Shown here: positions 7,047-32,269 of the stretch, piece by piece | Layout: the number at the start of each line of letters is the position of its first letter | How positions within the stretch are numbered: the first letter of the stretch is position 1 | The notes under the pieces: generated by a model | What the model saw: the letters and a program-made list of their open reading frames with translations, nothing else | Databases searched by the model: none | What the model was told of the DNA's origin: nothing | Made by a program: the position numbers and the translations under genes | Source of the DNA: a virus | Taxonomy: Duplodnaviria; Heunggongvirae; Uroviricota; Caudoviricetes | DNA length: 36,440 nt | Direction: 5' to 3' (one strand) | IMG/VR virus record: IMGVR_UViG_2778261172_000005 | Coordinates: 1-36,440 of that record

Positions 7047-8237
7047 TTAATTGCTGTTAACCGAGGTGACCAGATTTGCCAGGTATTTATCGGTAATACG
7101 CTGGCGCAGGGTCAGGTTTTCAAGAGGAGGCACCGGTGTATAGTCGTAGTCGATATACAGTTTTCCGGCCTTGAGGGTTTCCGCATCGTTGGATTCTTCG
7201 CTGAACCAGCAGGTCGCATCCACGATATAGCCGTTTGTTTTCAGCTCACGGAATTTGGCATTGATGCCGTCAACGATGTCGCGAATCAGCGTTGCGGTGA
7301 TGGGCTTGTCCACCGCCCACATGTGCGCCTCAGCCATCGTGTCGGCCAGCACCTGCGCGGTGCGGGTGTAGTTTTCAAAGAGGAACAGCGGGTCATCAGA
7401 GCAGGTACGGTTACCCCAGAATCGGAAACCGTCGCGGCGAATAATCGTAGTGACGCCTGACTCGTTCAACAGGTCAGCATCGGTGCCGGACTCCTGCAAA
7501 TCCCAGAATACAGAAGCACTGATGCCGGTAACACCGTTTACCCCGACATTGGACAGCGTTTTATGCCAGCCCTGCTCCTGGTCGATTTTAGCGCGCAGAC
7601 CCAGCGCACGGGCGGTGGCATACGCGGTGGCGGTGGAGCTGCTGACCGTATCCCATGCGAGGAAATCCGGCCAGATGACCATCAGCTCACGCTGGCTGAA
7701 ATTCTGGCGGTAGGCTTTCACCTCGGAAATGGTTTTACAGCCCCATGCGCTGATATACCCGAAAGCGCGCAGCTTCTGACAGACTGATGCCAGTGCAACA
7801 GCCACCTCTTTGGTGTCCAGTCCCGGCACGCCGAGAATACGCGGTTTAACACCGGTTACTGACTCCGCCGCCAGCAGGGCTTTCAGTCCGGTGTACTGAC
7901 CGTTTTCGTCGGTGGTGCCGATGATATTGGAAACGGTCTGCGCGAGTTTCGTTTCTTCGTCTTCGCCGGTGCCGTCTTCCACACGCACGACAACGGTGAC
8001 CGGTTTTGACTGGTCGGCGATGGCCTGTAACGATGCCGCCAGCGTGCCTTTTTTACCGGCCTTTGCAATTGCGCTCTGGGCATTGGTAATCAGCACAGGT
8101 TTATTGAGGGGGAAGGTTTCCGCATCCGCATCGCTGGCCGTGCAGACCATGCCGACAATGGCAGTGGATACGGTGGAAATGACGCGGGTGCCGTCGTTAA
8201 TCTCCAGCACCTGCACGCCATGATGATAGTCACTCAT
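7047..8237 (-). CDS. FI: contractile tail sheath protein (P2 gpFI-like)
   Basis: 396-aa ORF; sequence and synteny. Confidence 0.9.
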   Translation of the reverse strand: MSDYHHGVQVLEINDGTRVISTVSTAIVGMVCTASDADAETFPLNKPVLITNAQSAIAKAGKKGTLAASLQAIADQSKPVTVVVRVEDGTGEDEETKLAQTVSNIIGTTDENGQYTGLKALLAAESVTGVKPRILGVPGLDTKEVAVALASVCQKLRAFGYISAWGCKTISEVKAYRQNFSQRELMVIWPDFLAWDTVSSSTATAYATARALGLRAKIDQEQGWHKTLSNVGVNGVTGISASVFWDLQESGTDADLLNESGVTTIIRRDGFRFWGNRTCSDDPLFLFENYTRTAQVLADTMAEAHMWAVDKPITATLIRDIVDGINAKFRELKTNGYIVDATCWFSEESNDAETLKAGKLYIDYDYTPVPPLENLTLRQRITDKYLANLVTSVNSN

Positions 8238-8333
8238 CCGTTTAACTCCGTGGTTAATGGGTGCAACTATTTTCTGTTGTGCAGAGCATGAGACGCTATT
8301 TGACCTGGCTGGTCAGTGGATGAAACAACAGAT

Positions 8334-8360
8334 AAAGAAAAGGCGGGCAATTCGCCCGCC
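8334..8360 (-). terminator. rho-independent terminator between the Z/fun-position cargo and FI
   Basis: Perfect 7-bp inverted repeat GGCGGGC/GCCCGCC with 5-nt loop, followed on the minus strand by TTTTCTTT. Confidence 0.5.
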
Positions 8361-8581
8361 TGTCCTGATTTGTACTCACTCATTTTCCGACTGACAATTT
8401 ACATAACCCAAACGCTATCAATTCTGACAGTCTGCTTTGAGCGAAAAGTGGAAGTTCGCAATTATCCTCACCACTGATAAGTAGCCTTTACTTACAATGT
8501 AATGTGTTAGCTAATGTAATAGGAGCTGAGCAGTGAATTATGAATGGATGCTTTAGTTCATATTTGGGAACAAATTACTGT

Positions 8582-8606
8582 AAAAAAAACCGGCTTACAC
8601 CGGTTT
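8582..8606 (-). terminator. rho-independent terminator immediately downstream of the 305-aa cargo gene
   Basis: Inverted repeat AAACCGG/CCGGTTT with 6-nt loop, followed on the minus strand by an 8-T tract (plus-strand AAAAAAAA). Confidence 0.6.
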
Positions 8607-8661
8607 AAACTCGCTCGCGAGAATCACCCCCCAAATTATATGCAAAATTAAAAATACCAAT

Positions 8662-9579
8662 TCACTCCATTTCTCTTTTGGCTAATTCTTCCCATTCGTC
8701 GATTGAGTTATTATAAGGAAATACCTCTTTAACTATGAAAGGAATGTAGCTTTCTTCAGCATTGTGATGTATTTCATTACTGATATTACTTGTGATTCCG
8801 AATTTTACGTCAGGATCGTTTTCAGAGAAATGTATATGAAAAGGTTGTTGACCTAAAGCCTGTCTAATTTTATTTGCTTGTTCTGATGGAAGGACTTTAA
8901 GTAGCTGTTTGAATGTTTTTTTATTAAAGTCTAGAGAAATGGCCATATCAATATCTCCGGGTATCATAGATATGCACGTGTATGACCGTTCGCTCAATCG
9001 ACTAATAAATTTAGTATTTATAGCAGGGGCACTAAAAGAACCATCTTTAACCAAACCCATTTTTCGAATATGAATTCCAAAATCAGGTGCATAACTCAAG
9101 ACATCCGGATTGGCTTTAATATCTGGATTTAATATCCTAAATAATTTTTCCCAGTAATTACCAATGTCTTTCAAAGAAAATCTGAGTATTGGGTGGAGTT
9201 CCCGTATACTATATAGAACAAATTCATTCCCATTGCACAATGCATACATTTCTGCCCTTATTTCTGGATGTATAGCATAACTATAGGCTTGCTCAACGTG
9301 CATGCTTTTGGTTATTTTTTCATTAGGGGCCTTTGCATCAAGAATCCAATATGGTCGGTCGTTAGAAAGAAAAACATAATCCGGTACTATTGAAATCTTT
9401 CTTGGCTGTGAACCTATTGAGACAAATGGATGTGTAAGCGTTTTGCTCCTGATTACACGACTATCTCCCGATGCTTTATAACCAAGAGCTTTAATAATTG
9501 GTAAAATCAACTCTTCTCTGACTGAATCCTCTTTAAATTCATCTGAGCTTAGTAAGTTAAAATCAAAATCATCAAACAT
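8662..9579 (-). CDS. cargo protein with N-terminal PD-(D/E)xK restriction-endonuclease-like domain (HsdR-N/Mrr-like), 305 aa; candidate defence nuclease
   Basis: Motifs E-x...PDYVF...WILDAK...EQAYSYA in the order typical of the PD-(D/E)xK fold; AT-rich gene at the FI-G position where P2 carries Z/fun; own terminator; ATG preceded by a G-run SD. Confidence 0.6.
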   Translation of the reverse strand: MFDDFDFNLLSSDEFKEDSVREELILPIIKALGYKASGDSRVIRSKTLTHPFVSIGSQPRKISIVPDYVFLSNDRPYWILDAKAPNEKITKSMHVEQAYSYAIHPEIRAEMYALCNGNEFVLYSIRELHPILRFSLKDIGNYWEKLFRILNPDIKANPDVLSYAPDFGIHIRKMGLVKDGSFSAPAINTKFISRLSERSYTCISMIPGDIDMAISLDFNKKTFKQLLKVLPSEQANKIRQALGQQPFHIHFSENDPDVKFGITSNISNEIHHNAEESYIPFIVKEVFPYNNSIDEWEELAKREME

Positions 9580-9900
9580 ATCCCCCCCACATATATTTAT
9601 TTGACAAAAGATGTATAATTCAAATTATTCAGAGCCATTGTAAATCACTATAGAATAAAAAGATAATTTCAAGTGGAGGTGTTATCTGATTTTTTGATTT
9701 ATAGCACAAAAAACGACCTCTACAGGCTGTTTATTACGATAGTTAAAGCTGATCACATTTAGGCAGTCAGTCCAAGATGCTCTCTTCAACATGGCCTAGG
9801 TTTTTTTACCGTCGAAGAAGATAATTGTGTCCATAGCATGATGCTTTCAAGTGGTATGATCTCTTTCTCAGTGATTCATGCAGTATGAGCCTAGCAACTT

Positions 9901-9934
9901 CTGCTTCTGGCACAGGGCGGACTTTCTGACTGAG
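9901..9934. repeat. 34-bp direct repeat, copy 1 (CTGCTTCTGGCACAGGGCGGACT...), flanking the DUF2971-like gene
   Basis: About 80 percent identical to 11060..11093, with the first 23 nt matching at 21 positions. Confidence 0.6.
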
Positions 9935-10090
9935 TTGAAGGTCTGCTGCGACCGAATATCGGACATTAATAACCTCAGAGACATAGCGCCCTTGAAATGC
10001 ACCCCTCCAGAAATGAAAATCTGTTATGATACTAGCATAAACTATTTATTTTTCAGTAAAGTTTAGAAAACAAATTTTTATGAATAGAAA

Positions 10091-10113
10091 AAAGGAGAAC
10101 AATGCCCTCCTTC
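10091..10113 (-). terminator. possible terminator downstream of the DUF2971-like gene
   Basis: Inverted repeat AAGGAG/CTCCTT with 9-nt loop, followed by a T-rich run on the minus strand; imperfect. Confidence 0.35.
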
Positions 10114-10130
10114 TTTATTTTTAAATTCTA

Positions 10131-10859
10131 CTACAATTTAATTTTTAGTCTTTTAGGAGCATCGTATAGAGTAGATATTTTTATTTCGGCTTTACAACCC
10201 TTATCCTCAATTGCCAATGTGTATGCCTGCCTTAAGTTTTTTTCCATTCTTGGGTCAAATAGCACGGTGTCTAATAGTTCAACTGGATTAATTTCAAACT
10301 GGAAAATATCATTATCGACACTATTATCATCACCAGAATATATTAAACGAACTTCGCTTTCGTGTTCAAACTCCACGCGTTTGTATAAAAGCGATTCAGC
10401 AATGCCTGAGCCATTAGTGTTGAATAAATCAATTGACAAGAGTTTTTCCGAAAGAGTATCCTCCGGAAGATAAGAAACCTTGCCTATAAAACACCTTAAA
10501 TTATGGTAAGTCGGCTCTGCTTTTTGAAGTGCGGCTAATAGTTTTCTTGGTGTGGTTGAAACTCTTACACCATTTTTATCATGGGAATATATCCGCCACA
10601 TTGCATCGGTTTCACTATGAAATGTCCAGCATTGCCCATAAACAGAATCTCTTGCGGCAACTGTTCCTGTTTGACCATCAGAAGTTTCAATTACACAATT
10701 TAATAAAGCGTTCTCAAAAGGGTCATCCCATTTTCTTGGTTTTACTAAAGTTAATTTTTTTTCTTCAAGCAATTGAAGAAAACGGTGTATTGGCATAATT
10801 CTATAAATAGGTATATCCAATGATTCATCTGTTAAATTAATATAGTTATTATAGCTCAT
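10131..10859 (-). CDS. DUF2971-like cargo protein, 242 aa; candidate single-gene defence or abortive-infection factor
   Basis: N-terminal IYRIMPIHRFLQLLEEKKL...PRKWDDPFE matches my recollection of the DUF2971 signature (YR.P..RF...L...L...P..F.DP.E); strongly AT-rich; flanked by direct repeats. Confidence 0.5.
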   Translation of the reverse strand: MSYNNYINLTDESLDIPIYRIMPIHRFLQLLEEKKLTLVKPRKWDDPFENALLNCVIETSDGQTGTVAARDSVYGQCWTFHSETDAMWRIYSHDKNGVRVSTTPRKLLAALQKAEPTYHNLRCFIGKVSYLPEDTLSEKLLSIDLFNTNGSGIAESLLYKRVEFEHESEVRLIYSGDDNSVDNDIFQFEINPVELLDTVLFDPRMEKNLRQAYTLAIEDKGCKAEIKISTLYDAPKRLKIKL

Positions 10860-11059
10860 ACATATTGACCTTTTGGTAGTTAGTGTAATTAAAAAGGCGG
10901 TTGGGATATTTTAGCAAAAACCTAAGAACTGATTCAACCCTGCGGACTTACAGATTTCAGTTCATATATCCAATGTTATAAATTCTCATTTATGAACTAT
11001 TCTCCTAAAATTTTTTGATTTCAATCTTTAGAGAGCGCAAAAGACCTATGTTCGAATGA

Positions 11060-23454: not shown

Positions 23455-23627
23455 TGTCAGGAGTCCTGAATAGTGATTAGAGGAGTCACATGTCGGCATC
23501 AGTTTCCCGACGATACGCATCCTCCGCCATCAGTCCCGGATGGCTTATCACTGACACAACAGCACCTTAGCGAATCGCGGGGCGCGACTCAGTAGCCTTG
23601 CCGTGTATTCATCACGGCGAGGTATTC
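23455..23627. promoter_or_regulatory. divergent late promoter region between O and P (expected Ogr-dependent promoters)
   Basis: 173-bp gap between divergently oriented O and P, as in P2; contains imperfect dyads (TGTCGG...CCGACG, CCGTG...CACGG); exact sites not resolved. Confidence 0.4.
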
Positions 23628-25400
23628 ATGACCATCACCACAGACACCACTCTTTTGCACGACCCGCGTCGTCAGGCGGCGCTGCTGTACTGGCAGGGTT
23701 TTTCCGTGCCGCAGATTGCCGCCATGTTGCAGATGAAACGCCCGACGGTGCAGAGCTGGAAACAGCGCGACGACTGGGACAGCGTTGCCCCCATCAGCCG
23801 TGTCGAAATGAGTCTGGAAGCGCGGCTGACCCAGCTCATTATCAAACCACAGAAAACCGGCGGTGACTTCAAGGAAATTGACCTGCTGGGACGCCAGATT
23901 GAACGACTGGCACGGGTAAATCGCTACAGCCAGACCGGCAACGAGGCAGACCTTAATCCGAACGTCGCTAACCGCAACAAAGGCGGGCGGCGCAAACCGA
24001 AAAAGAATTTTTTCAGTGACGAGGCCATCGAAAAGCTGGAGCAGATTTTCTTTGAGCAGTCTTTCGACTATCAGTTGCACTGGTATCGCGCCGGGCTTGA
24101 GCACCGCATCCGCGATATCCTGAAATCCCGCCAGATTGGCGCGACGTTTTATTTTTCCCGCGAGGCGCTGCTGCGCGCCCTGAAAACCGGCCATAACCAG
24201 ATTTTTCTGTCGGCCAGTAAAACGCAGGCGTATGTGTTCCGTGAATACATCATCGCCTTTGCTCGTCTGGTTGACGTTGACCTGACCGGTGACCCGATTG
24301 TCCTGGGCAATAACGGCGCAAAACTGATTTTTCTCGGCACCAACTCCAACACCGCGCAGAGTCATAACGGCGACCTGTACGTCGATGAGATTTTCTGGAT
24401 CCCGAATTTTCAGGTACTGCGTAAGGTGGCATCAGGTATGGCCTCACAGAGTCACCTGCGCTCGACCTATTTCTCCACCCCGTCCACGCTGGCGCACGAC
24501 GCCTACCCGTTCTGGTCGGGTGAACTGTTTAACCGGGGACGCGCCAGCGCCGCCGAACGCGTGGAAATCGACGTCAGTCATAACGCCCTTGCCGGTGGGC
24601 TTCTCTGTGCGGACGGCCAGTGGCGACAGATTGTCACCATTGAGGACGCCCTGAAAGGCGGCTGCACGCTGTTCGACATTGAGCAGCTCAAACGCGAAAA
24701 CAGCGCCGACGATTTTAAAAACCTGTTCATGTGTGAATTTGTTGACGACAAGGCATCGGTGTTCCCGTTCGAGGAGCTGCAACGCTGCATGGTCGACACG
24801 CTGGAAGAATGGGAAGACTATGCGCCGTTTGCCGCCAATCCGTTCGGCTCCCGCCCGGTATGGATTGGTTACGACCCGTCACACCGTGGCGACAGCGCCG
24901 GATGCGTGGTACTGGCACCGCCGGTGGTGGCCGGTGGCAAATTCAGAATACTTGAGCGTCACCAGTGGAAAGGCATGGACTTTGCCACCCAGGCGGAATC
25001 CATCCGCAAACTCACCGAAAAATACAACGTCGAATACATCGGGATTGATGCCACCGGCCTCGGTGTCGGCGTGTTCCAGCTCGTGCGCTCGTTCTATCCC
25101 GCCGCGCGTGATATCCGCTACACGCCGGAAATGAAAACCGCAATGGTGCTCAAGGCAAAAGACGTTATCCGCCGTGGCTGTCTGGAATACGACGTCAGCG
25201 CCACCGACATCACCAGCTCGTTTATGGCTATCCGCAAGACCATGACCAGCAGCGGACGCAGCGCCACCTATGAGGCCAGCCGCAGCGAGGAAGCCAGCCA
25301 CGCCGACCTCGCCTGGGCGACCATGCACGCCCTGTTAAATGAGCCACTCACCGCCGGTATCAGCACCCCGCTGACATCCACCATTCTGGAGTTTTACTGA
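23628..25400 (+). CDS. P: terminase large (ATPase) subunit (P2 gpP-like, 590 aa)
   Basis: ATG at 23628 with GAGG Shine-Dalgarno 8 nt upstream; the ORF-track start at 23598 is a TTG extension; sequence recognised. Confidence 0.9.
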   Translation: MTITTDTTLLHDPRRQAALLYWQGFSVPQIAAMLQMKRPTVQSWKQRDDWDSVAPISRVEMSLEARLTQLIIKPQKTGGDFKEIDLLGRQIERLARVNRYSQTGNEADLNPNVANRNKGGRRKPKKNFFSDEAIEKLEQIFFEQSFDYQLHWYRAGLEHRIRDILKSRQIGATFYFSREALLRALKTGHNQIFLSASKTQAYVFREYIIAFARLVDVDLTGDPIVLGNNGAKLIFLGTNSNTAQSHNGDLYVDEIFWIPNFQVLRKVASGMASQSHLRSTYFSTPSTLAHDAYPFWSGELFNRGRASAAERVEIDVSHNALAGGLLCADGQWRQIVTIEDALKGGCTLFDIEQLKRENSADDFKNLFMCEFVDDKASVFPFEELQRCMVDTLEEWEDYAPFAANPFGSRPVWIGYDPSHRGDSAGCVVLAPPVVAGGKFRILERHQWKGMDFATQAESIRKLTEKYNVEYIGIDATGLGVGVFQLVRSFYPAARDIRYTPEMKTAMVLKAKDVIRRGCLEYDVSATDITSSFMAIRKTMTSSGRSATYEASRSEEASHADLAWATMHALLNEPLTAGISTPLTSTILEFY

Positions 25401-26434
25401 TGAGCAAGAAAAAAGGGAAAACACCGCAACCTGCGGCAAAAACAATGACCGCCAGCGGCCCGAAAATGGAGGCATTCACCTTTGGTGAGCCGGTGCCGGT
25501 ACTCGACCGCCGTGACATTCTGGATTACGTCGAGTGCATCAGTAACGGCAGATGGTATGAGCCACCGGTCAGCTTTACCGGTCTGGCAAAAAGCCTGCGG
25601 GCTGCCGTGCATCACAGCTCGCCGATTTACGTCAAACGCAATATTCTGGCCTCGACATTTATCCCGCATCCATGGCTTTCCCAGCAGGATTTCAGCCGCT
25701 TTGTGCTGGATTTTCTGGTGTTCGGTAATGCGTTTCTGGAAAAGCGTTACAGCACCACCGGTAAGGTCATCAGACTGGAAACCTCACCGGCAAAATATAC
25801 CCGCCGTGGCGTGGAAGAGGATGTTTACTGGTGGGTGCCGTCCTTCAACGAGCCGACAGCCTTCGCGCCCGGCTCCGTGTTTCACCTGCTGGAGCCTGAT
25901 ATTAATCAGGAGCTGTACGGCCTGCCGGAATATCTGAGCGCCCTTAACTCTGCCTGGCTGAATGAGTCGGCCACGCTGTTCCGCCGCAAGTATTACGAAA
26001 ACGGCGCACATGCCGGATACATCATGTACGTCACCGATGCCGTGCAGGATCGCAACGATATCGAAATGCTTCGCGAAAACATGGTGAAGTCGAAAGGCCG
26101 CAACAACTTTAAAAACCTGTTTCTCTACGCCCCACAGGGAAAAGCCGACGGTATTAAAATTATCCCGCTCAGTGAAGTGGCAACGAAGGACGATTTTTTT
26201 AATATCAAAAAAGCCAGCGCCGCTGACCTGCTTGACGCGCACCGCATCCCCTTTCAGTTGATGGGTGGCAAGCCGGAAAACGTCGGGTCGCTGGGCGATA
26301 TTGAGAAAGTGGCAAAGGTCTTTGTCCGCAATGAGCTTATCCCGTTACAGGACAGGATTCGGGAAATAAACGGCTGGCTCGGTCAGGAGGTCATCCGCTT
26401 TAAAAACTACTCACTGGACACTGACAACGACTGA
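25400..26434 (+). CDS. Q: portal protein (P2 gpQ-like)
   Basis: 344-aa ORF; start overlaps the P stop (TGATG). Confidence 0.9.
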   Translation: MSKKKGKTPQPAAKTMTASGPKMEAFTFGEPVPVLDRRDILDYVECISNGRWYEPPVSFTGLAKSLRAAVHHSSPIYVKRNILASTFIPHPWLSQQDFSRFVLDFLVFGNAFLEKRYSTTGKVIRLETSPAKYTRRGVEEDVYWWVPSFNEPTAFAPGSVFHLLEPDINQELYGLPEYLSALNSAWLNESATLFRRKYYENGAHAGYIMYVTDAVQDRNDIEMLRENMVKSKGRNNFKNLFLYAPQGKADGIKIIPLSEVATKDDFFNIKKASAADLLDAHRIPFQLMGGKPENVGSLGDIEKVAKVFVRNELIPLQDRIREINGWLGQEVIRFKNYSLDTDND

Positions 26435-26461: not shown

Positions 26462-26603
26462 ACACCCCGTCATCACGCCCTCACACACTCACCACCGCAC
26501 AAAACAGCCCGCAGACACACCAACGCCCCGGTGCACAATCTAAACGCCATCAAGACGCGCTCAGACGCTGAAAAAATAAAATCAGCACCACCGCCAGCGC
26601 GCA

Positions 26604-26622
26604 GTGCTTTCCCCGCCTCGCC
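26604..26622. other. cos site (19-nt cohesive end sequence)
   Basis: GTGCTTTCCCCGCCTCGCC is the reverse complement of the P2 cohesive end GGCGAGGCGGGGAAAGCAC as I recall it; lies just beyond Q as in P2. Confidence 0.8.
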
Positions 26623-26975
26623 CGCCCGCTTCACATCGCCTTTTTAATGCAAGTGCAACGATTCAGTGTTCCAAGCATGGTTTTAGGTGAATAGAGAATG
26701 AGAGGGTAAAAAAAATCATGCAGATTAATGCACCTATAGATGCATTATTAAACTAATAGGATAGTTGTGATATTGGCTGCATTGACTCCACTTGTGAGGG
26801 AACAAACCAACGACAGCGCAAGATTCAACCTGACAATTAACTATTCCCCAGAGGGATATTCTTACAGTATTTAAGTCATCAGTTGATTATTCATTAGCAC
26901 TGCCGTTATTGACAATTTTGTTGTTTTTTGAGATGTTATTAAATCAAGTTCCATAGATAAGATCATGGGTGGGCG

Positions 26976-27521
26976 ATGATAAATATTAATGAAGAAATTA
27001 ATAATTCTTTCGATGAGTTTGATGAGGAGGATAAACAGCAAGCTTACTTATCTTTCTTTAAAAATAGTTTCCCTTTTTTACTTTGCCCAACTCTATTCAA
27101 ACGCAGTGAAGATCTCCCTCAATTAAATTGGGTGAAAGTAAAATATACTGAGCATGCGGCTCATACTTTCCCAAATCAACAGGGAGTATATATGTTTATG
27201 GTTGGTTTCGAAAGCACTAAGCTCCCCAATAATTCATATGTTATGTATGTAGGAAAGGCCGGCGATACTAATTCCAACAACACAATCTGCAAAAGGTTTA
27301 AAGATTACGTTAATCCATCTGGATTTAGAGACAGGCCCAGAGTTAAGAAACTCATTCAGCATTTTAGTGAGCATTTATATTATTACTATGCAACACTCCC
27401 AACAGGGCAATCCACAGCAGATGTTGAATCCACTTTAGCCGATATTTTCGCACCACCTTGTTGTCAACGAGATTTTTCAGCTAATGTGCGAAGCTTATTG
27501 AGAGGAGTTAGAATTATATGA
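26976..27521 (+). CDS. GIY-YIG-like nuclease-domain cargo protein, 181 aa; first gene of a two-gene operon at the old/tin position
   Basis: GVYMF...YVMYVGKAGD...RFKDY...E...N, arranged as in the GIY-YIG fold with a longer than usual spacer between the first two motifs; very AT-rich; stop overlaps the next ATG. Confidence 0.5.
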   Translation: MININEEINNSFDEFDEEDKQQAYLSFFKNSFPFLLCPTLFKRSEDLPQLNWVKVKYTEHAAHTFPNQQGVYMFMVGFESTKLPNNSYVMYVGKAGDTNSNNTICKRFKDYVNPSGFRDRPRVKKLIQHFSEHLYYYYATLPTGQSTADVESTLADIFAPPCCQRDFSANVRSLLRGVRII

Positions 27522-28657
27522 ATCAACGTTTAGTCCTTCCATGTTTGAGAGGCTATATGGGGAGCTGGATTACATATAGTTGCATGATGAGACTTTCAGA
27601 TGCATCCAATTTGATCGGGTTTGCTGAGGAACTCCATCAAATTGATAAATTGTCAGACAAAATACAACGTGAATTAAATAATGATAGGGCTGAAGAAATC
27701 TCTCATTATTTGGTTAGCAATGATGATCGCTTCTTTAACTCATTAGTTGTAGCTGTTTATGATGGCGATCCAAATTGGCATGAAATTGGAGGAATAACTC
27801 CAAACAATGAAGAAGCCTCTTTGCTTGATTTTCCTGAGTATGCAGGGAATTGCATTGGTTTTTTATCCATTACAAGAGATGAAAAATTTTTTGCACTTGA
27901 TGGACAACATCGCTTAGCTGGCATCAAAGCTGCTCTTAAAGTTAATAGCGATATTGCTGATGATCTAATTAGCGTTATTATTGTTGCTCATGCTAATACG
28001 CCAGAAGGTAAAGTAAGATCCAGAAGATTATTTACCACTTTAAATAAAAAGGCAAAATTAGTTAGTAAAGATACCATTATAGCTTTAGATGAGGATGATA
28101 TAGCAGCATGCATAACAAGACGTCTAATTGAGGCAGAGGATTTCATATACTTCAATGAAGATAACGTATCCTTTAACTCTGGTCCTGTTAGAGATAAAAC
28201 GAGCATCACATCTATTGTTAATATATATGATAATGTTCAGAAGTTAGTAGCATATAAATTAGGTGTTAAAATTACCGAGTTGGAAAGATACAAGTATAAA
28301 GATCATATTGACATATACAACTTCATTTCTAATTTTTATAGCTACACATTCGAAGGATGTGAAGAGTTAATCAAAGTAGCTAAAGGTGAACAACCTGCTG
28401 GATTTTATAGAAATTCCGAAACTGGTGGGCATATTTTGTTTAGACCTATTGGTTGGGATTTATATACAGATATAGTACTCTATGCCATGACTCATTTTAA
28501 TCATGACCTTAAAAAGGCAATTCAACACATCACCAAACACAATCTAAACATGTCTGGCTCTATTCTATCCAACAAAGTTTGGTCAACAAAACAAAAGAAA
28601 ATCCTTAAGATAAGTGCTAAAAACATAAAAGCAATACAAAAAAGTTTGTTATCATAA
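27518..28657 (+). CDS. DGQHR-domain (DndB/ParB-like) cargo protein, 379 aa; second gene of the operon
   Basis: Exact signature FFALDGQHRLAGIK preceded by a QR motif, as in the DGQHR/DndB family; AGGAG Shine-Dalgarno inside the end of the upstream gene; ATGA overlap; AT-rich. Confidence 0.6.
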   Translation: MNQRLVLPCLRGYMGSWITYSCMMRLSDASNLIGFAEELHQIDKLSDKIQRELNNDRAEEISHYLVSNDDRFFNSLVVAVYDGDPNWHEIGGITPNNEEASLLDFPEYAGNCIGFLSITRDEKFFALDGQHRLAGIKAALKVNSDIADDLISVIIVAHANTPEGKVRSRRLFTTLNKKAKLVSKDTIIALDEDDIAACITRRLIEAEDFIYFNEDNVSFNSGPVRDKTSITSIVNIYDNVQKLVAYKLGVKITELERYKYKDHIDIYNFISNFYSYTFEGCEELIKVAKGEQPAGFYRNSETGGHILFRPIGWDLYTDIVLYAMTHFNHDLKKAIQHITKHNLNMSGSILSNKVWSTKQKKILKISAKNIKAIQKSLLS

Positions 28658-28687
28658 ATCAATTGATACTATATTACTGTACAGTTT

Positions 28688-28712
28688 AAAAACCGCCAAT
28701 CAGGCGGTTTTT
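28688..28712. terminator. bidirectional rho-independent terminator after the cargo operon
   Basis: Perfect 10-bp inverted repeat AAAAACCGCC/GGCGGTTTTT with 5-nt loop; A-tract upstream and T-tract downstream. Confidence 0.65.
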
Positions 28713-28815
28713 AAACTGTCAACCAAGCGTTTCTTGAGCGGTTTACATTCTTAAACCAGTGCCGTATTTAACTAAACATAACATTCCAGCCAATCTGACA
28801 GGTCAGTAACATCCG

Positions 28816-28974
28816 TTATCCGGGCTTCACTTTTCGTCTCGTATATCCATACAGAATAAACGAGCCTCCGCTCTCATAATTACGGTGATTTTTAAGAAAC
28901 TCCGCGCGTTTCTTTCCTTCCAGCCCAAGGTCTAAATATTTTGTGTGCAGCTTTACCTCATGAATTTTTGCCAT
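28816..28974 (-). CDS. small hypothetical protein (52 aa) coupled to the end of gene A
   Basis: ATG overlaps the A stop codon (TAATG); no recognisable motif; start chosen inside the 64-aa ORF-track call. Confidence 0.35.
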   Translation of the reverse strand: MAKIHEVKLHTKYLDLGLEGKKRAEFLKNHRNYESGGSFILYGYTRRKVKPG

Positions 28975-31265
28975 TATGTCCACTCCATTACAGCTGAGAA
29001 TCCCGGCCACTCATCAGCGACCGGATACGTGAATTTTTTCCCGTCATAATTTACTGTTGCCCCACGCGCCAGCGCCTCAAGCTCCCATCGCTGCGGCCTG
29101 ATACCGTTCTGAGCAAGGTCAACGCGGATACGGGTAATTTGCGTTCGTTCCGACCGGGTCAGTCTGGCCGATGGCGCTATTTCATGTGGTTTTAACGGGC
29201 TTCCGTTTCTCTGCTGACGATTTGGTGTTCTCAGTTCGTGTTTTAATGCACCTCTGAGCGCCCTCACGACCTCTGGCTCATTCCATTCGATAACACCGTC
29301 ATCAACCAGATTAAGCACTGCTGCGGCGTGCTCAGAAGGCGTGGGAGCCGGTGACGAAGTATCACCGTCGGTAAGCTTTCCACAGTTATTGACAGGACTC
29401 CGAGGCGCGGCGATGCCGCTTTTTAAAGTCAAAGGCTCAACGACCGGAACTTTCGGCACAATGCGCCAGTCCGTCGTTCTGGTGATATGAATATGACGCG
29501 CGCCGAGATGCGGCGCGTAAATGCCGACCACTCTCTCGACTTCTTCCTCATACTCGTTAACGTCATCCGACGGGCTACGGGCGACCCTGACAGTCTGACA
29601 ATCGCGCGGGACATTTGCCCCGCCCTGCGCGCTGATATACAGCGCAAAATCGCCACTGTCTGCGGCAGCGCGTGCAGCCTCGACGCGTTCGTCAAACTCA
29701 TCAGCAATGCTGACGCCGCGAGGCAACTTACGTAGTTCACGGTAAGCCCCCATTGTCGGCAGGCCAACCGTTTTAAATTGCGGGATGCGCCACGTTGACG
29801 CCCATGCGGTAACAGCCGCAGCAGTGTCTTTCAGCGGCCTGCCGGTATCGTTATCGAGCTGACCATCCAGTGCATAGCCGTCGATGTTTTTTGAAATGTA
29901 TTTCGCGATATATCCCGCAGCACCGCCCCGGTTAAGGTGTTTTGCCTGAAAACGGTTTCGCGCAGCTCCTCTTTCGTCGCCATCCTCTTTGAGCGCATAG
30001 CGACGCATGATTTCGATAATCTGGTTACGCTGGCGTGGATTACAAAAAAGCATCATATGCCAGTGCGGCGTTCCGTCGTGGTGTGGCTCGACGACTCGCA
30101 AACCGTAGACCTGTAAATCATTATCCTTGAATGCCGTGCGCATCAGGCTCCAGATACGGCAGAGATAACGCTGCGCATCCTTCGGATTAAATGCCTCATC
30201 ATTCCAGCCGTGATTAAGCTGGACGGTTTTACTTTCGCCTTTTCCGACCTGACGTGTCGGATGATACTTTGACGGCGCGGTCAGCGTGATAAACATCCCC
30301 ACATCACCCTCTGCGGCGGCGTAACGCTCAATACCGGCAATGGTGTTCATCAGCTCCATCCGGCGAATTTCAGGATTAGAAATACTGCCCATCACCTTAC
30401 TGATAAGGTCGATGCGTTCGCCGGTTTCCCTGTTTTCAAGGTCACACGATTTAAGAAATTCCAGATTTGCCTGACGGCGCGTACGCACATCACGAATAGC
30501 ATGTTTACTGGCATAAGGTGAACGGTCTTTATTGACCTCCCCGACAGCAATCAGTAACGCCTCATGCCAGCGCATACGCTGGCCTTTAAGCTGATGAGTC
30601 CACCACTCATCGTTAAACAGACGGGCAATGGCAGAATATGCCTGCCTCGTGGTCATCTGCCCTTTACGGTATTTTTTCCAGTAGAGAGGGGAAATATTGA
30701 AAGCTCGTGCAGCGCCAGCAACATGACCATACAGGTGAGCCTGCGCCTCATCCGTAAACAGCGATTCTTTCTCGCCATGCGCATCCACCCAGGCATCGCT
30801 GAGTTCCTCATACATCATGAAAAGCTGCGATGAGATACGGGCGGCAAATTTTTTCAGCTCCTTGTCATTCATTCCCGGCAGGCGTGCATACTGGTCGCGC
30901 TCTGCCAGAAACAGCAACGACGCGTCGGTGTTCATTTCATGGCGCTGATTCACGCGCTCAATGCGCGGCCATAAACGACGCTGAAAAGTGGATGTGAGGA
31001 AATAAAACCCGTGTAGCGGACTTTTATTGCGCCGGATGTAGTCATAGCGTGAAGTAAACAGCGAGCGCAAAAAGTAAGGCAGGCGGTTAATCGTGGATAA
31101 AACACCTTGCACCTGACGCATCTCGTCACGTGTAAGGGTTCTTTCGCGCCCGACGGCCTCGCGTGGCGCGTTCCATGCATAAGCACCGGTAAACGCCTTA
31201 CCGGTGCCTGCAGCAAATGCTGACGGAGGTACGCAGGTGTATTGCTCCTGGAAAGAATGACTCAT
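28974..31265 (-). CDS. A: replication initiation protein A (rolling-circle nicking endonuclease, P2 gpA-like)
   Basis: 763-aa ORF; sequence recognised; position next to cos and the hotspot as in P2. Confidence 0.9.
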   Translation of the reverse strand: MSHSFQEQYTCVPPSAFAAGTGKAFTGAYAWNAPREAVGRERTLTRDEMRQVQGVLSTINRLPYFLRSLFTSRYDYIRRNKSPLHGFYFLTSTFQRRLWPRIERVNQRHEMNTDASLLFLAERDQYARLPGMNDKELKKFAARISSQLFMMYEELSDAWVDAHGEKESLFTDEAQAHLYGHVAGAARAFNISPLYWKKYRKGQMTTRQAYSAIARLFNDEWWTHQLKGQRMRWHEALLIAVGEVNKDRSPYASKHAIRDVRTRRQANLEFLKSCDLENRETGERIDLISKVMGSISNPEIRRMELMNTIAGIERYAAAEGDVGMFITLTAPSKYHPTRQVGKGESKTVQLNHGWNDEAFNPKDAQRYLCRIWSLMRTAFKDNDLQVYGLRVVEPHHDGTPHWHMMLFCNPRQRNQIIEIMRRYALKEDGDERGAARNRFQAKHLNRGGAAGYIAKYISKNIDGYALDGQLDNDTGRPLKDTAAAVTAWASTWRIPQFKTVGLPTMGAYRELRKLPRGVSIADEFDERVEAARAAADSGDFALYISAQGGANVPRDCQTVRVARSPSDDVNEYEEEVERVVGIYAPHLGARHIHITRTTDWRIVPKVPVVEPLTLKSGIAAPRSPVNNCGKLTDGDTSSPAPTPSEHAAAVLNLVDDGVIEWNEPEVVRALRGALKHELRTPNRQQRNGSPLKPHEIAPSARLTRSERTQITRIRVDLAQNGIRPQRWELEALARGATVNYDGKKFTYPVADEWPGFSAVMEWT

Positions 31266-32269
31266 TCACATACACCGGCATAGACACTACTGCAAACGGC
31301 TTTATCATTCGCCGAAGCCAGTAAATCAAACTGAGTACCCCCACGCGTTGTCATTGTCCAGTCATGGTAGGTTTCTATTCCGTATGCCTCGACTGTTACA
31401 ATCTCAATACGACGTTCTGCGCGTAGCGGATCATGTGTGGATGGGAAAAAAGTGGAATTTCCCCGACGGGAGCACGACGCAACCAGTCGTTCCCATTCAG
31501 CAACCCGTTTTATTTCCTCCGGCCACCGGCGAAAAATTTCTGCCAGTTCAGATTTACGGACATGAATACATGGCATACAACCAACACGGCCACACCCCTG
31601 CTGATATAACGGATTTGGCTTAATGTCATGTCTTCTGGCTATTGCAAATACATCTTCATGCTTCCAGTGCAAAATCGGGCGATATACATGCAATCCGGGG
31701 GTGTTGTCTGCATCCTCTTCCCAGACAGGTAAAGCAGCGCGTGATGGCGATTCCTGAGCACGCACTCCCTGCCAGCTAATCACTTCCTCAAATTCATTGA
31801 GTAAAGGCAATATTACCTGAGAACGCACGGGCTCATGTTTCAGTTCAAATGTGCAAAATCTGGCTTTGGTTGATGGGAAACGCCCCTTCCACAGACACAA
31901 ATCAAGAAACGGGATACCCGTTGGTTTGAGAATTTCCAGCGCACAACTGATGCGCTGGTGCGCTTCTTCTTCCGACATTCCACAATCGTTAACCAACAAA
32001 TCAGGCCATTTGGTCTGGATAAACTTGCGCTTTGATTCAATCCGGCAGGAAAAATCAGCTCTGACTCTTTTAATTGGGCCAAGCCGTTTTTCCAGATAAT
32101 CCAGATATTTCATTGTCTGTGGATGTTCATGTCCCGTATCAGCAAAAACCGGCAATATGGGTACATTTTCTTCAATAGCGACAAGCCACTGAGCAAGGCT
32201 GTCCTTTCCACCTGAAACAAAAATAACATTGATGGTATTTTCAGTATGGCAACGAGCATCAGTAATCAT
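31262..32269 (-). CDS. PAPS-reductase-like PP-loop protein (DndC-like fold), 335 aa
   Basis: PP-loop motif VSGGKDS near the N-terminus and a cysteine cluster (GCGRVGCMPC); stop overlaps the A start (ATGA); absent from canonical P2. Confidence 0.7.
   Translation of the reverse strand: MITDARCHTENTINVIFVSGGKDSLAQWLVAIEENVPILPVFADTGHEHPQTMKYLDYLEKRLGPIKRVRADFSCRIESKRKFIQTKWPDLLVNDCGMSEEEAHQRISCALEILKPTGIPFLDLCLWKGRFPSTKARFCTFELKHEPVRSQVILPLLNEFEEVISWQGVRAQESPSRAALPVWEEDADNTPGLHVYRPILHWKHEDVFAIARRHDIKPNPLYQQGCGRVGCMPCIHVRKSELAEIFRRWPEEIKRVAEWERLVASCSRRGNSTFFPSTHDPLRAERRIEIVTVEAYGIETYHDWTMTTRGGTQFDLLASANDKAVCSSVYAGVCE

Follow-up and report, generated by a model that had tools for sequence, protein, structure and literature searches.

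SspE (of SspABCD-SspE) and DndI (of IscS-DndBCDE-DndI) are proteins of DNA phosphorothioation (PT) immunity that combine a ParB-like NTPase with a nickase. PT DNA stimulates the NTPase, and defence requires both activities (PMC11662687, PMC8092258). Such a restriction partner is not known for most sspBCD clusters, 83.9% of which have neither sspE nor sspFGH, or for many dndBCDE clusters; the gap is acknowledged (PMC8092258; PMC10853773) and further restriction partners have been predicted (PMC8092258). DndB, a dimer, represses the transcription of dndBCDE (PMC4507180), and a DndB-like ParB-fold protein binds ATP and GTP (bioRxiv 10.1101/2025.10.10.680097). In the portion of Krishnan, Burroughs and Aravind 2024 (PMC10853773) drawn on here, GIY-YIG nucleases of the URI type are placed at the edges of dnd neighbourhoods as possible backup effectors. 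The gpA-gpQ interval of P2-like prophages is a defence hotspot (Rousset 2022, Vassallo 2022; PMC9122126, PMC9519451). The subject of this report is a two-gene cassette in that interval of a P2-like prophage, found in a 36,440-nucleotide stretch of viral DNA (IMG/VR record IMGVR_UViG_2778261172_000005; referred to below as the window). Gene 1 encodes a candidate GIY-YIG-fold nuclease and gene 2 a DndB-family protein with a DGQHR motif. Relatives of the two genes are found together elsewhere and, in a majority of the metagenomic loci analysed, close to PT genes.

A metagenome scan with gene 2 yielded at least 415 confirmed loci, 80 of which were retained for analysis (gene-2 identity 33-81%). 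Among the 70 loci with enough upstream DNA, hidden Markov model (HMM) analysis places a gene-1 relative directly upstream on the same strand in 69. The sole exception (L072) is a read-through open reading frame (ORF), and the remaining 10 of the 80 loci, which are truncated upstream, hold partial copies of gene 1. The intergenic gap over the 80 loci ranges from -7 to +37 nt, with one outlier of 237 nt. A gene-1 relative is also directly upstream in all four viral contigs, at gene-2 identities down to 27%. The pair is present in P. viridiflava (66% identity), an E. coli integrative island (70%), a V. vulnificus filamentous prophage (45%), a Serratia P2-like prophage and Salmonella, and in these genomic and viral contexts a 4-bp overlap of the two genes is usual. 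A genome scan with a close gene-1 alignment led to one Serratia locus. No close homologues were found by tblastn in described phages (50,697 phage records), the yield being a mis-binned Salmonella contig and two faecal-sample fragments. A preliminary description of this DNA had proposed the two genes as partners, and they do travel together elsewhere, in the metagenomic and viral loci counted above and in all genomic contexts of gene 2, over a range of 27-85% gene-2 identity. The pair is a widespread, strictly coupled module.

Judged by its profile matches, gene 2 is a full-length DndB-family protein and a paralogue of DndB, not a true DndB. The Pfam DndB domain (PF14072) spans residues 7-371 (E-value: 7.5e-32; 111.1 bits against a cutoff of 29.1), and gene 2 also scores above the cutoff of TIGR03187, the generic DGQHR model (110.1 bits against 58.85). 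An exact DGQHR is found at residues 128-132 and is invariant in 80/80 metagenomic homologues; both this signature and the DGQHR/DndB-family membership had been recognized earlier from the sequence, and the profiles agree. The true-DndB equivalog TIGR03233 is failed by a wide gap (78.8 bits against a cutoff of 328), as is TIGR04172 (DNA phosphorothioation-associated DGQHR protein 1; 31.9 bits against a cutoff of 450), for which the Ssp- and Dnd-linked relatives of gene 2 score 25-33 bits. PADLOC assigns gene 2 the generic DndB model only (2.8e-20), plus a spurious Cas2 match (0.014). With a gene-2 subfamily profile, the true DndB of one Salmonella locus scores 45 bits and the paired gene 351 bits. 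Gene 2 shares PF14072 along its whole length, the DGQHR motif and the ParB fold with DndB, but the two proteins co-occur in the same loci, and it is gene 2, not canonical dndB, that is preceded by the GIY-YIG gene. No SspE, DUF262 or DUF1524 matches were found for the pair in Pfam, PADLOC or NCBIfam, the window has no dndCDE genes, and a sequence search of gene 2 against the PDB gave no relative. Its fold consists of a ParB/sulfiredoxin-fold N-domain and a helical C-domain. Residues invariant in 25 homologues (to 43% identity) are Q50-R51, FALDGQHR, RRLFTTLNKKA, IIALDEDD, R298 and R309-P310-G312-W313, and H305 is nearly so.

Gene 1 has the motifs GVY (residues 70-72) and YVGKAGD (residues 91-97) within a GIY-YIG-type residue set of Y72, Y91, G93, K94, R107, Y111 and E151. 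Across 39 diverse family members W52, G70, Y72, Y91, G93, R107, Y111 and R120 are invariant, and E151 is kept in at least 90%. The N-terminal region of about 50 residues is acidic and variable. Structure prediction gives an alpha/beta core in which the GIY and YIG strands belong to a three-stranded sheet. PD-T4-3, a GIY-YIG restriction enzyme specific for 5-hydroxymethylcytosine (5hmC), is one of the structural neighbours of this predicted fold. PF01541 and PF20815 weakly match 9/39 and 13/39 family members (best E-values: 1.4e-5 and 1.5e-3). When the family profile is run against PDB sequences, UvrC GIY-YIG domains come top, with GVY19, Y29IGK32, R39 and Y43 of UvrC (numbering counted from the chain alignment) in register with the gene-1 motifs. 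Because of the structure prediction and these weak family-level matches, gene 1 is accepted here as having a predicted GIY-YIG fold with an apparently intact catalytic-type residue set. A word-indexed search with gene 1 found 42 close protein clusters, all enterobacterial, and an exhaustive profile search found 685 clusters at 50% identity; the best 150 of these 685 are nearly all stand-alone proteins of about 160-185 aa. Gene 2 has homologues in more than 2400 clusters. This homology excludes a chance origin of both ORFs. Matches of gene 1 to RFX5_N, PufC and P80 (E-value about 0.1) were dismissed as noise.

Neither the pair nor gene 1 has a name in PADLOC v2.0.0, NCBIfam (June 2026), Pfam or PHROGs. 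PADLOC-DB v2.0.0 gives 0 matches for gene 1 and has no system with both proteins, and no papers describing the pair were found in the literature searched. The idea that the pair is undescribed holds insofar as it belongs to no named system, but the arrangement is already listed in Table S5A of Rousset 2022, where the identical gene-1 protein (WP_086048488) appears in the P2 hotspot as 'DndB + hypothetical', an uncurated entry with no test.

PT genes were tallied by tblastn as sspB/C/D or dndB/C/D/E within 4 kb of the pair, and neighbouring genes were clustered and named via PADLOC and NCBIfam. The pair is PT-linked in 47 of the 80 metagenomic loci, 30 with sspB/C/D and 17 with dndB/C/D/E. No PT gene was seen in 33 loci, 22 of which have less than 3 kb of flanking DNA on both sides. 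When gene-2 identity is below 45% and at least 3 kb is available on both sides, 17 of 18 loci are PT-linked. The gene immediately upstream of the pair is SspD (E-value: 4.5e-138) in about 20 loci, with SspC (2e-281) further out in 15. In 17 loci sspD, on the same strand, ends less than 200 nt before the pair, and in five sspB starts less than 200 nt after it. Other loci have DndC/D/E, cysteine desulfurase and SspH/DndH-like ATPases near the pair, which adjoins dndBCDE in P. viridiflava and in an integrative and conjugative element of Salmonella Infantis. Because an SspE-like (DGQQR) gene is also nearby in only one of the 30 Ssp-linked loci, the pair occupies the SspE position after sspD. Identity with SspFGH was considered and rejected: SspF is a Walker-A protein and SspH is FtsK-like, and the PADLOC SspH and DndH models match neighbours, not the pair.

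A place among PT genes could also suit a regulatory or accessory module of PT modification, in which gene 2 would be an ATP-modulated, sequence-specific repressor that adjusts PT levels or its own operon, and gene 1 a nickase that aids sulfur insertion or repair. Gene 2 is homologous over its whole length to a protein that represses dndBCDE (PMC4507180), Ssp clusters have no DndB equivalent other than SspE, and the repeated hexamer in the block TTGACA-N13-TTGAGA upstream of gene 1 could be an operator. Such a role is nevertheless judged improbable. Canonical DndB is kept besides gene 2 in three dnd-linked loci, and in Salmonella and Pseudomonas loci, so that gene 2 is no replacement for it; Ssp-linked loci retain sspB, the known nickase; and there would be no reason for a modification accessory to be found alone in the defence hotspots of phages and islands.

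The home of the pair in PT clusters shifts the likely mechanism from the generic sensor plus effector of the preliminary description to a PT-associated nuclease arm like SspE or DndI. By analogy with these proteins, we infer that the cassette is a two-protein nuclease module of PT immunity, a split analogue of SspE/DndI, and with this a complex of the two proteins, nuclease activity, sensing of nucleoside triphosphate (NTP) and PT, and an anti-phage phenotype; the balance of probability tips slightly towards this reading. The module would work in the following way. Through its ParB/sulfiredoxin domain and DGQHR nucleotide-binding motif, the gene 2 protein would bind NTP as well as DNA and sense what state the DNA is in, with PT marks as the most plausible cue. 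The translationally coupled gene 1 protein, as a GIY-YIG endonuclease controlled by gene 2, would nick or cleave invading DNA, and this nuclease in trans would take the place of the fused HNH domain of SspE and DndI. The pair would be transcribed directly behind sspC-sspD or beside dndBCDE in environmental bacteria; in enterobacteria and vibrios it would have become a self-contained cassette with its own promoter and terminator, carried on mobile elements. In the P2 old/tin hotspot, the copy would serve to guard the lysogen from other phages. A broader proposal is possible, if somewhat unlikely: the cassette may be a portable 'reader-only' restriction arm that brings no modification genes itself and uses the Dnd or Ssp marks of its host against competing phages, may be the partner of many sspBCD clusters without SspE or SspFGH, and may represent a fifth class of PT-dependent effector, the first to combine a GIY-YIG nuclease with a DndB paralogue.

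SspE and DndI resemble the pair in having a ParB-superfamily NTP-binding domain with a DGQxR motif and a nickase or nuclease partner, and both they and the pair are found directly beside PT-modification genes. SspE and DndI, however, are single polypeptides with DUF262 (DGQQR) and DUF1524 HNH domains, whereas the pair consists of two proteins and has a DndB/DGQHR-type ParB domain, a different helical C-domain and a predicted GIY-YIG nuclease. The URI nucleases of dnd borders share with gene 1 the GIY-YIG/URI type and a position at PT modification loci (PMC10853773). In the portion of that source drawn on here they are stand-alone backup suicide effectors, and it describes no pair of URI nuclease and DndB paralogue, no Ssp linkage and no mobile orphan form. 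Eco29kI, Hpy188I, T4 EndoII and PD-T4-3 resemble gene 1 in predicted core fold and in the Tyr/Tyr/Arg/Glu set; gene 1 differs from these enzymes in its minimal size (181 aa), its 18-residue spacer, its DndB-like partner and in having no recognisable DNA-recognition domain. P2 old and tin occupy the same cos-proximal gpA-gpQ hotspot as presumed lysogen-protecting cargo, but have no sequence or domain relationship to the pair.

Several mobile elements carry the pair. It occupies the same hotspot in the divergent Serratia P2-like prophage, with 78-82% identity in the cargo but only 37-73% in the backbone. The copy in the E. coli island has an integrase as its neighbour, and the Vibrio filamentous prophage carries the pair at its end. 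Two of 5426 complete E. coli genomes carry it, JNEC-KY180 and PEC209, and it is absent from the other 5424; the cargo segment is 100% identical in both carriers. JNEC-KY180, the nearest complete genome, is 99.9% identical to the window over positions 1-25000. This strain has an island (L099, 4.43-4.46 Mb) with dptFGH, a DUF262 protein, an ATP-dependent nuclease and dndBCDE, with integrase and insertion sequence (IS) flanks, and its dndBCDE is 100% identical to that of E. coli B7A. Across the same 5426 genomes, dnd is found in 207 (3.8%), with the B7A type in 13.

The movement of the cassette among unrelated mobile elements would also be expected of a selfish addiction or homing module, in which a GIY-YIG toxin or homing enzyme and a DndB-like antidote or targeting subunit would stabilise or spread the cassette instead of defending the host. 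GIY-YIG proteins include homing endonucleases such as I-TevI, and a nuclease-first order with translational coupling resembles toxin-antitoxin logic. Homing enzymes, however, have DNA-binding extensions that gene 1 lacks, the loci showed no target-site or intron/intein context, and the pair is stably embedded in the chromosomal Ssp/Dnd operons of many lineages. A selfish module is considered very improbable.

A different explanation of the mobile copies is that the P2-borne cassette provides PT-independent defence, either as a type IV-like restriction system or as an abortive nuclease triggered by a phage cue. Its ParB-fold protein would see modified or foreign DNA as in GmrSD, BrxU and TgvAB, and the Ssp/Dnd association would be ancestral or a matter of co-location. 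These type IV enzymes are like the pair in combining a ParB-like NTPase with a nuclease and in being often on mobile elements (PMC4619093), and some (GmrS+GmrD, TgvA+TgvB) are two separate proteins with overlapping ORFs. They differ from it in their DUF262 (DGQQR) domain, their His-Me/HNH nucleases and their glucosylated 5hmC DNA target; the analysis found no evidence of a modified-base target for the pair. Defence of this kind against glucosyl-5hmC DNA is established (PMC4619093; PMC11014532), and the 5hmC-specific PD-T4-3 is a structural neighbour of gene 1. The cassette of the window clade (gene-2 identity at least 45%) is self-contained, with a conserved promoter-like block and a terminator, and occurs alone on three kinds of mobile element, and the rarity of dnd in E. 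coli fits as well. On the other side stand the same-strand, near-zero-gap siting behind sspD in at least 17 loci, the PT linkage of 17/18 loci and the PT-positive state of the one complete host genome checked. PT independence of the P2-borne cassette is rated rather unlikely.

Several further points count against a split SspE/DndI analogue. The window clade is mostly not PT-adjacent, the only exceptions being P. viridiflava and one metagenomic locus (L022), and the P2, island and filamentous-phage copies stand alone; PT dependence, as these gene neighbourhoods suggest, may have been lost in the mobile version. Since dnd is found in so few E. coli, a strictly PT-dependent cargo would usually be idle there, and since most E. 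coli are dnd-free, a cargo that attacked unmodified DNA would be lethal in them. The PT-positive JNEC-KY180 fits a PT link, as a single host genome. The PT linkage could partly reflect the clustering of defence islands, given the 33/80 loci in which no PT gene was seen, but the near-zero-gap siting behind sspD and the 17/18 linkage make island clustering alone hard to accept. The pairing counts are for loci found through gene 2. At the protein level, the spacing from GIY to YIG in gene 1 is 18 residues (usually about 10), the equivalent of the conserved Asn was not identified among the 39 diverse family members, and the protein has no direct match to any curated GIY-YIG HMM (Pfam, including PF01541 and PF20815, NCBIfam, PHROGs, PADLOC). 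The GIY-YIG claim of the preliminary description stands for GVY, YVGKAGD, R107, E151 and the predicted fold, with the correction that the window protein reaches no GIY-YIG HMM directly. For the C-terminal domain of gene 2 no structural match was obtained; the spacing of its conserved R298-x6-H305 looks like that of a HEPN motif, such as was proposed for DndB (Makarova 2013). The persistence of the cassette on mobile elements that enter mostly PT-negative hosts makes SspE-like logic (no activity where PT is absent) or PT independence likelier than a DndFGH-like attack on all unmodified DNA.

The pair is a concrete candidate for the missing restriction partner of sspBCD and dndBCDE clusters, being strictly coupled, widespread and in the SspE position. 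If the proposed split analogue is correct, the rule of a ParB-fold NTP switch plus nuclease would extend from fused DUF262-HNH proteins to a split DndB-type/GIY-YIG form, and the DndB family would have a role beyond transcriptional repression. With its P2-borne copy in a host that has B7A-type dnd, the pair raises the prospect that phages may carry orphan effectors that exploit host epigenetic marks; prophage cargo and chromosomal immunity would then cooperate in a new way.

The features of the cassette and its surroundings are given in Table 1. The placement of the cargo at the cos-proximal hotspot is confirmed by the exact cos match and by the end of the portal gene and gene A on either side. 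The cos landmark is an exact match to the P2 cos sequence GGCGAGGCGGGGAAAGCAC; the number of such matches expected by chance is 0. GC content is 0.32-0.42 over 26501-29000, compared with about 0.52-0.60 in the flanking backbone, in line with the earlier statement that the cassette is far more AT-rich. The two plus-strand ORFs, their ATGA overlap and the internal AGGAG are all present where they had been placed. With its promoter-like block and terminator, the cassette is about 1.8 kb in size.

The form TTGACA-N13-TTG(A/G/T)(G/C)A is kept about 60 nt 5' of gene 1. It occurs in the window, in two viral contigs (L014 and L015), in one metagenome locus (L018), in the E. coli island (L007) and in the Serratia P2-like prophage (L003), and the sequence farther 5' is unrelated between these loci. 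Judging from this conservation, the TTGACA-N13-TTGAGA block of the window could be the cassette promoter or a direct-repeat operator for the DndB-like protein. A palindrome at 26726-26747 was examined as a cassette operator and rejected; it is common to the Serratia P2-like prophage only and is assigned to the P2 backbone near cos. The hairpin that closes the operon reads AAAAACCGCC-AATCA-GGCGGTTTTT, with a CCGCC/GGCGG core followed by TTTTT. It is real, as first described, but its arms are longer than the 10 bp then given, and it was not listed by a simple terminator scan because the T-run lies inside the extended stem. The truncated backbone gene at the right boundary matches Pfam DUF3850 (E-value: 4.5e-4). 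In PEC209 (L002), an IS21-family element, ISEc12 (8316-10618 of L002), lies between the pair and the DUF3850 remnant; PEC209 is the only complete E. coli genome besides JNEC-KY180 with the cassette.

Table 1. Positions of the cassette, its landmarks and other genes in the window.
Feature	Coordinates	Strand	Remarks
Putative Z/fun-position ORF, 305 aa	8662..9579	-	second AT-rich island
Putative Z/fun-position ORF, 242 aa	10131..10859	-	second AT-rich island; DUF2971
ORF of third AT-rich patch, 251 aa	16496..17251	-	beside Phage_tail_S morphogenesis gene
Terminase	23598..25400	+	
Portal	25400..26434	+	
P2-type cos cohesive-end sequence	26604..26622	-	left hotspot landmark, outside cassette
AT-rich cargo segment, about 2.1 kb	26640..28775		between cos and truncated DUF3850/ASCH gene
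Putative promoter block	26909..26939	+	perfect -35 TTGACA (26909-26914), 13 nt, second hexamer TTGAGA, weak -10
Gene 1, candidate GIY-YIG (URI)-fold nuclease, 181 aa	26976..27521	+	ORF, ATG start
AGGAG Shine-Dalgarno of gene 2	27503..27507	+	within gene 1, 10 nt 5' of second ATG
ATGA stop/start overlap of genes 1 and 2	27518..27521	+	
Gene 2, full-length DndB-family DGQHR protein, 379 aa	27518..28657	+	ORF, ATG start
Terminator-like hairpin closing operon	28681..28719	+	perfect 17-nt arms (28681-28697 / 28703-28719), 5-nt loop
Truncated backbone gene DUF3850/ASCH	28775..29010	-	right cargo boundary; in RefSeq a frameshifted, C-terminally incomplete ASCH pseudogene
Replication gene A	28974..31265	-	right flank of cargo
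PAPS-reductase-domain (PP-loop) gene	31265..32269	-	directly downstream of gene A

Other genes were observed around the pair in individual loci. A GHKL-type (MzaB-like) ATPase of about 634 aa is encoded within a few kb of the pair, downstream of it in L036 and in the Ssp-linked loci L061 and L062 but upstream in L057. SspH-like and DndH-like FtsK-type ATPases recur in other loci. These recurring ATPases suggest larger composite PT islands. The P. viridiflava loci (L004-L006; 25..2097 and 7278..8859) encode a second gene-2 paralogue (E-value: 1.5e-103, subfamily profile) followed by a 266-aa protein, and a 329-aa protein and an S-adenosylmethionine-dependent methyltransferase are encoded downstream of the pair, all beside dndBCDE and an IS66 element. 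The pair of Salmonella Infantis (L098) is followed by a gene for a 594-aa protein. The additional P. viridiflava and Salmonella proteins may be lineage-specific third components.

The PAPS-reductase-domain gene next to gene A has SspD as its best PADLOC match, but was rejected as a true SspD (74 bits, compared with 457 for genuine SspD). Its homologues (33-36% identity) are near the pair in the Serratia prophage (L003) and immediately adjoin it in one viral contig (L015).

The window also contains other AT-rich DNA. A second island (8500-11000; GC 0.33-0.37) adjoins a tail-fibre assembly gene and is probably the cargo of the second P2 hotspot (Z/fun position). Its 305-aa protein has a weak match to HSDR_N and the N-terminus of type IIG restriction endonucleases, and its 242-aa DUF2971 protein matches the PADLOC candidate PDC-S31 (E-value: 1e-94). 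The 251-aa ORF of the third AT-rich patch (GC 0.37-0.40), which has no Pfam or PADLOC match, may be another moron.

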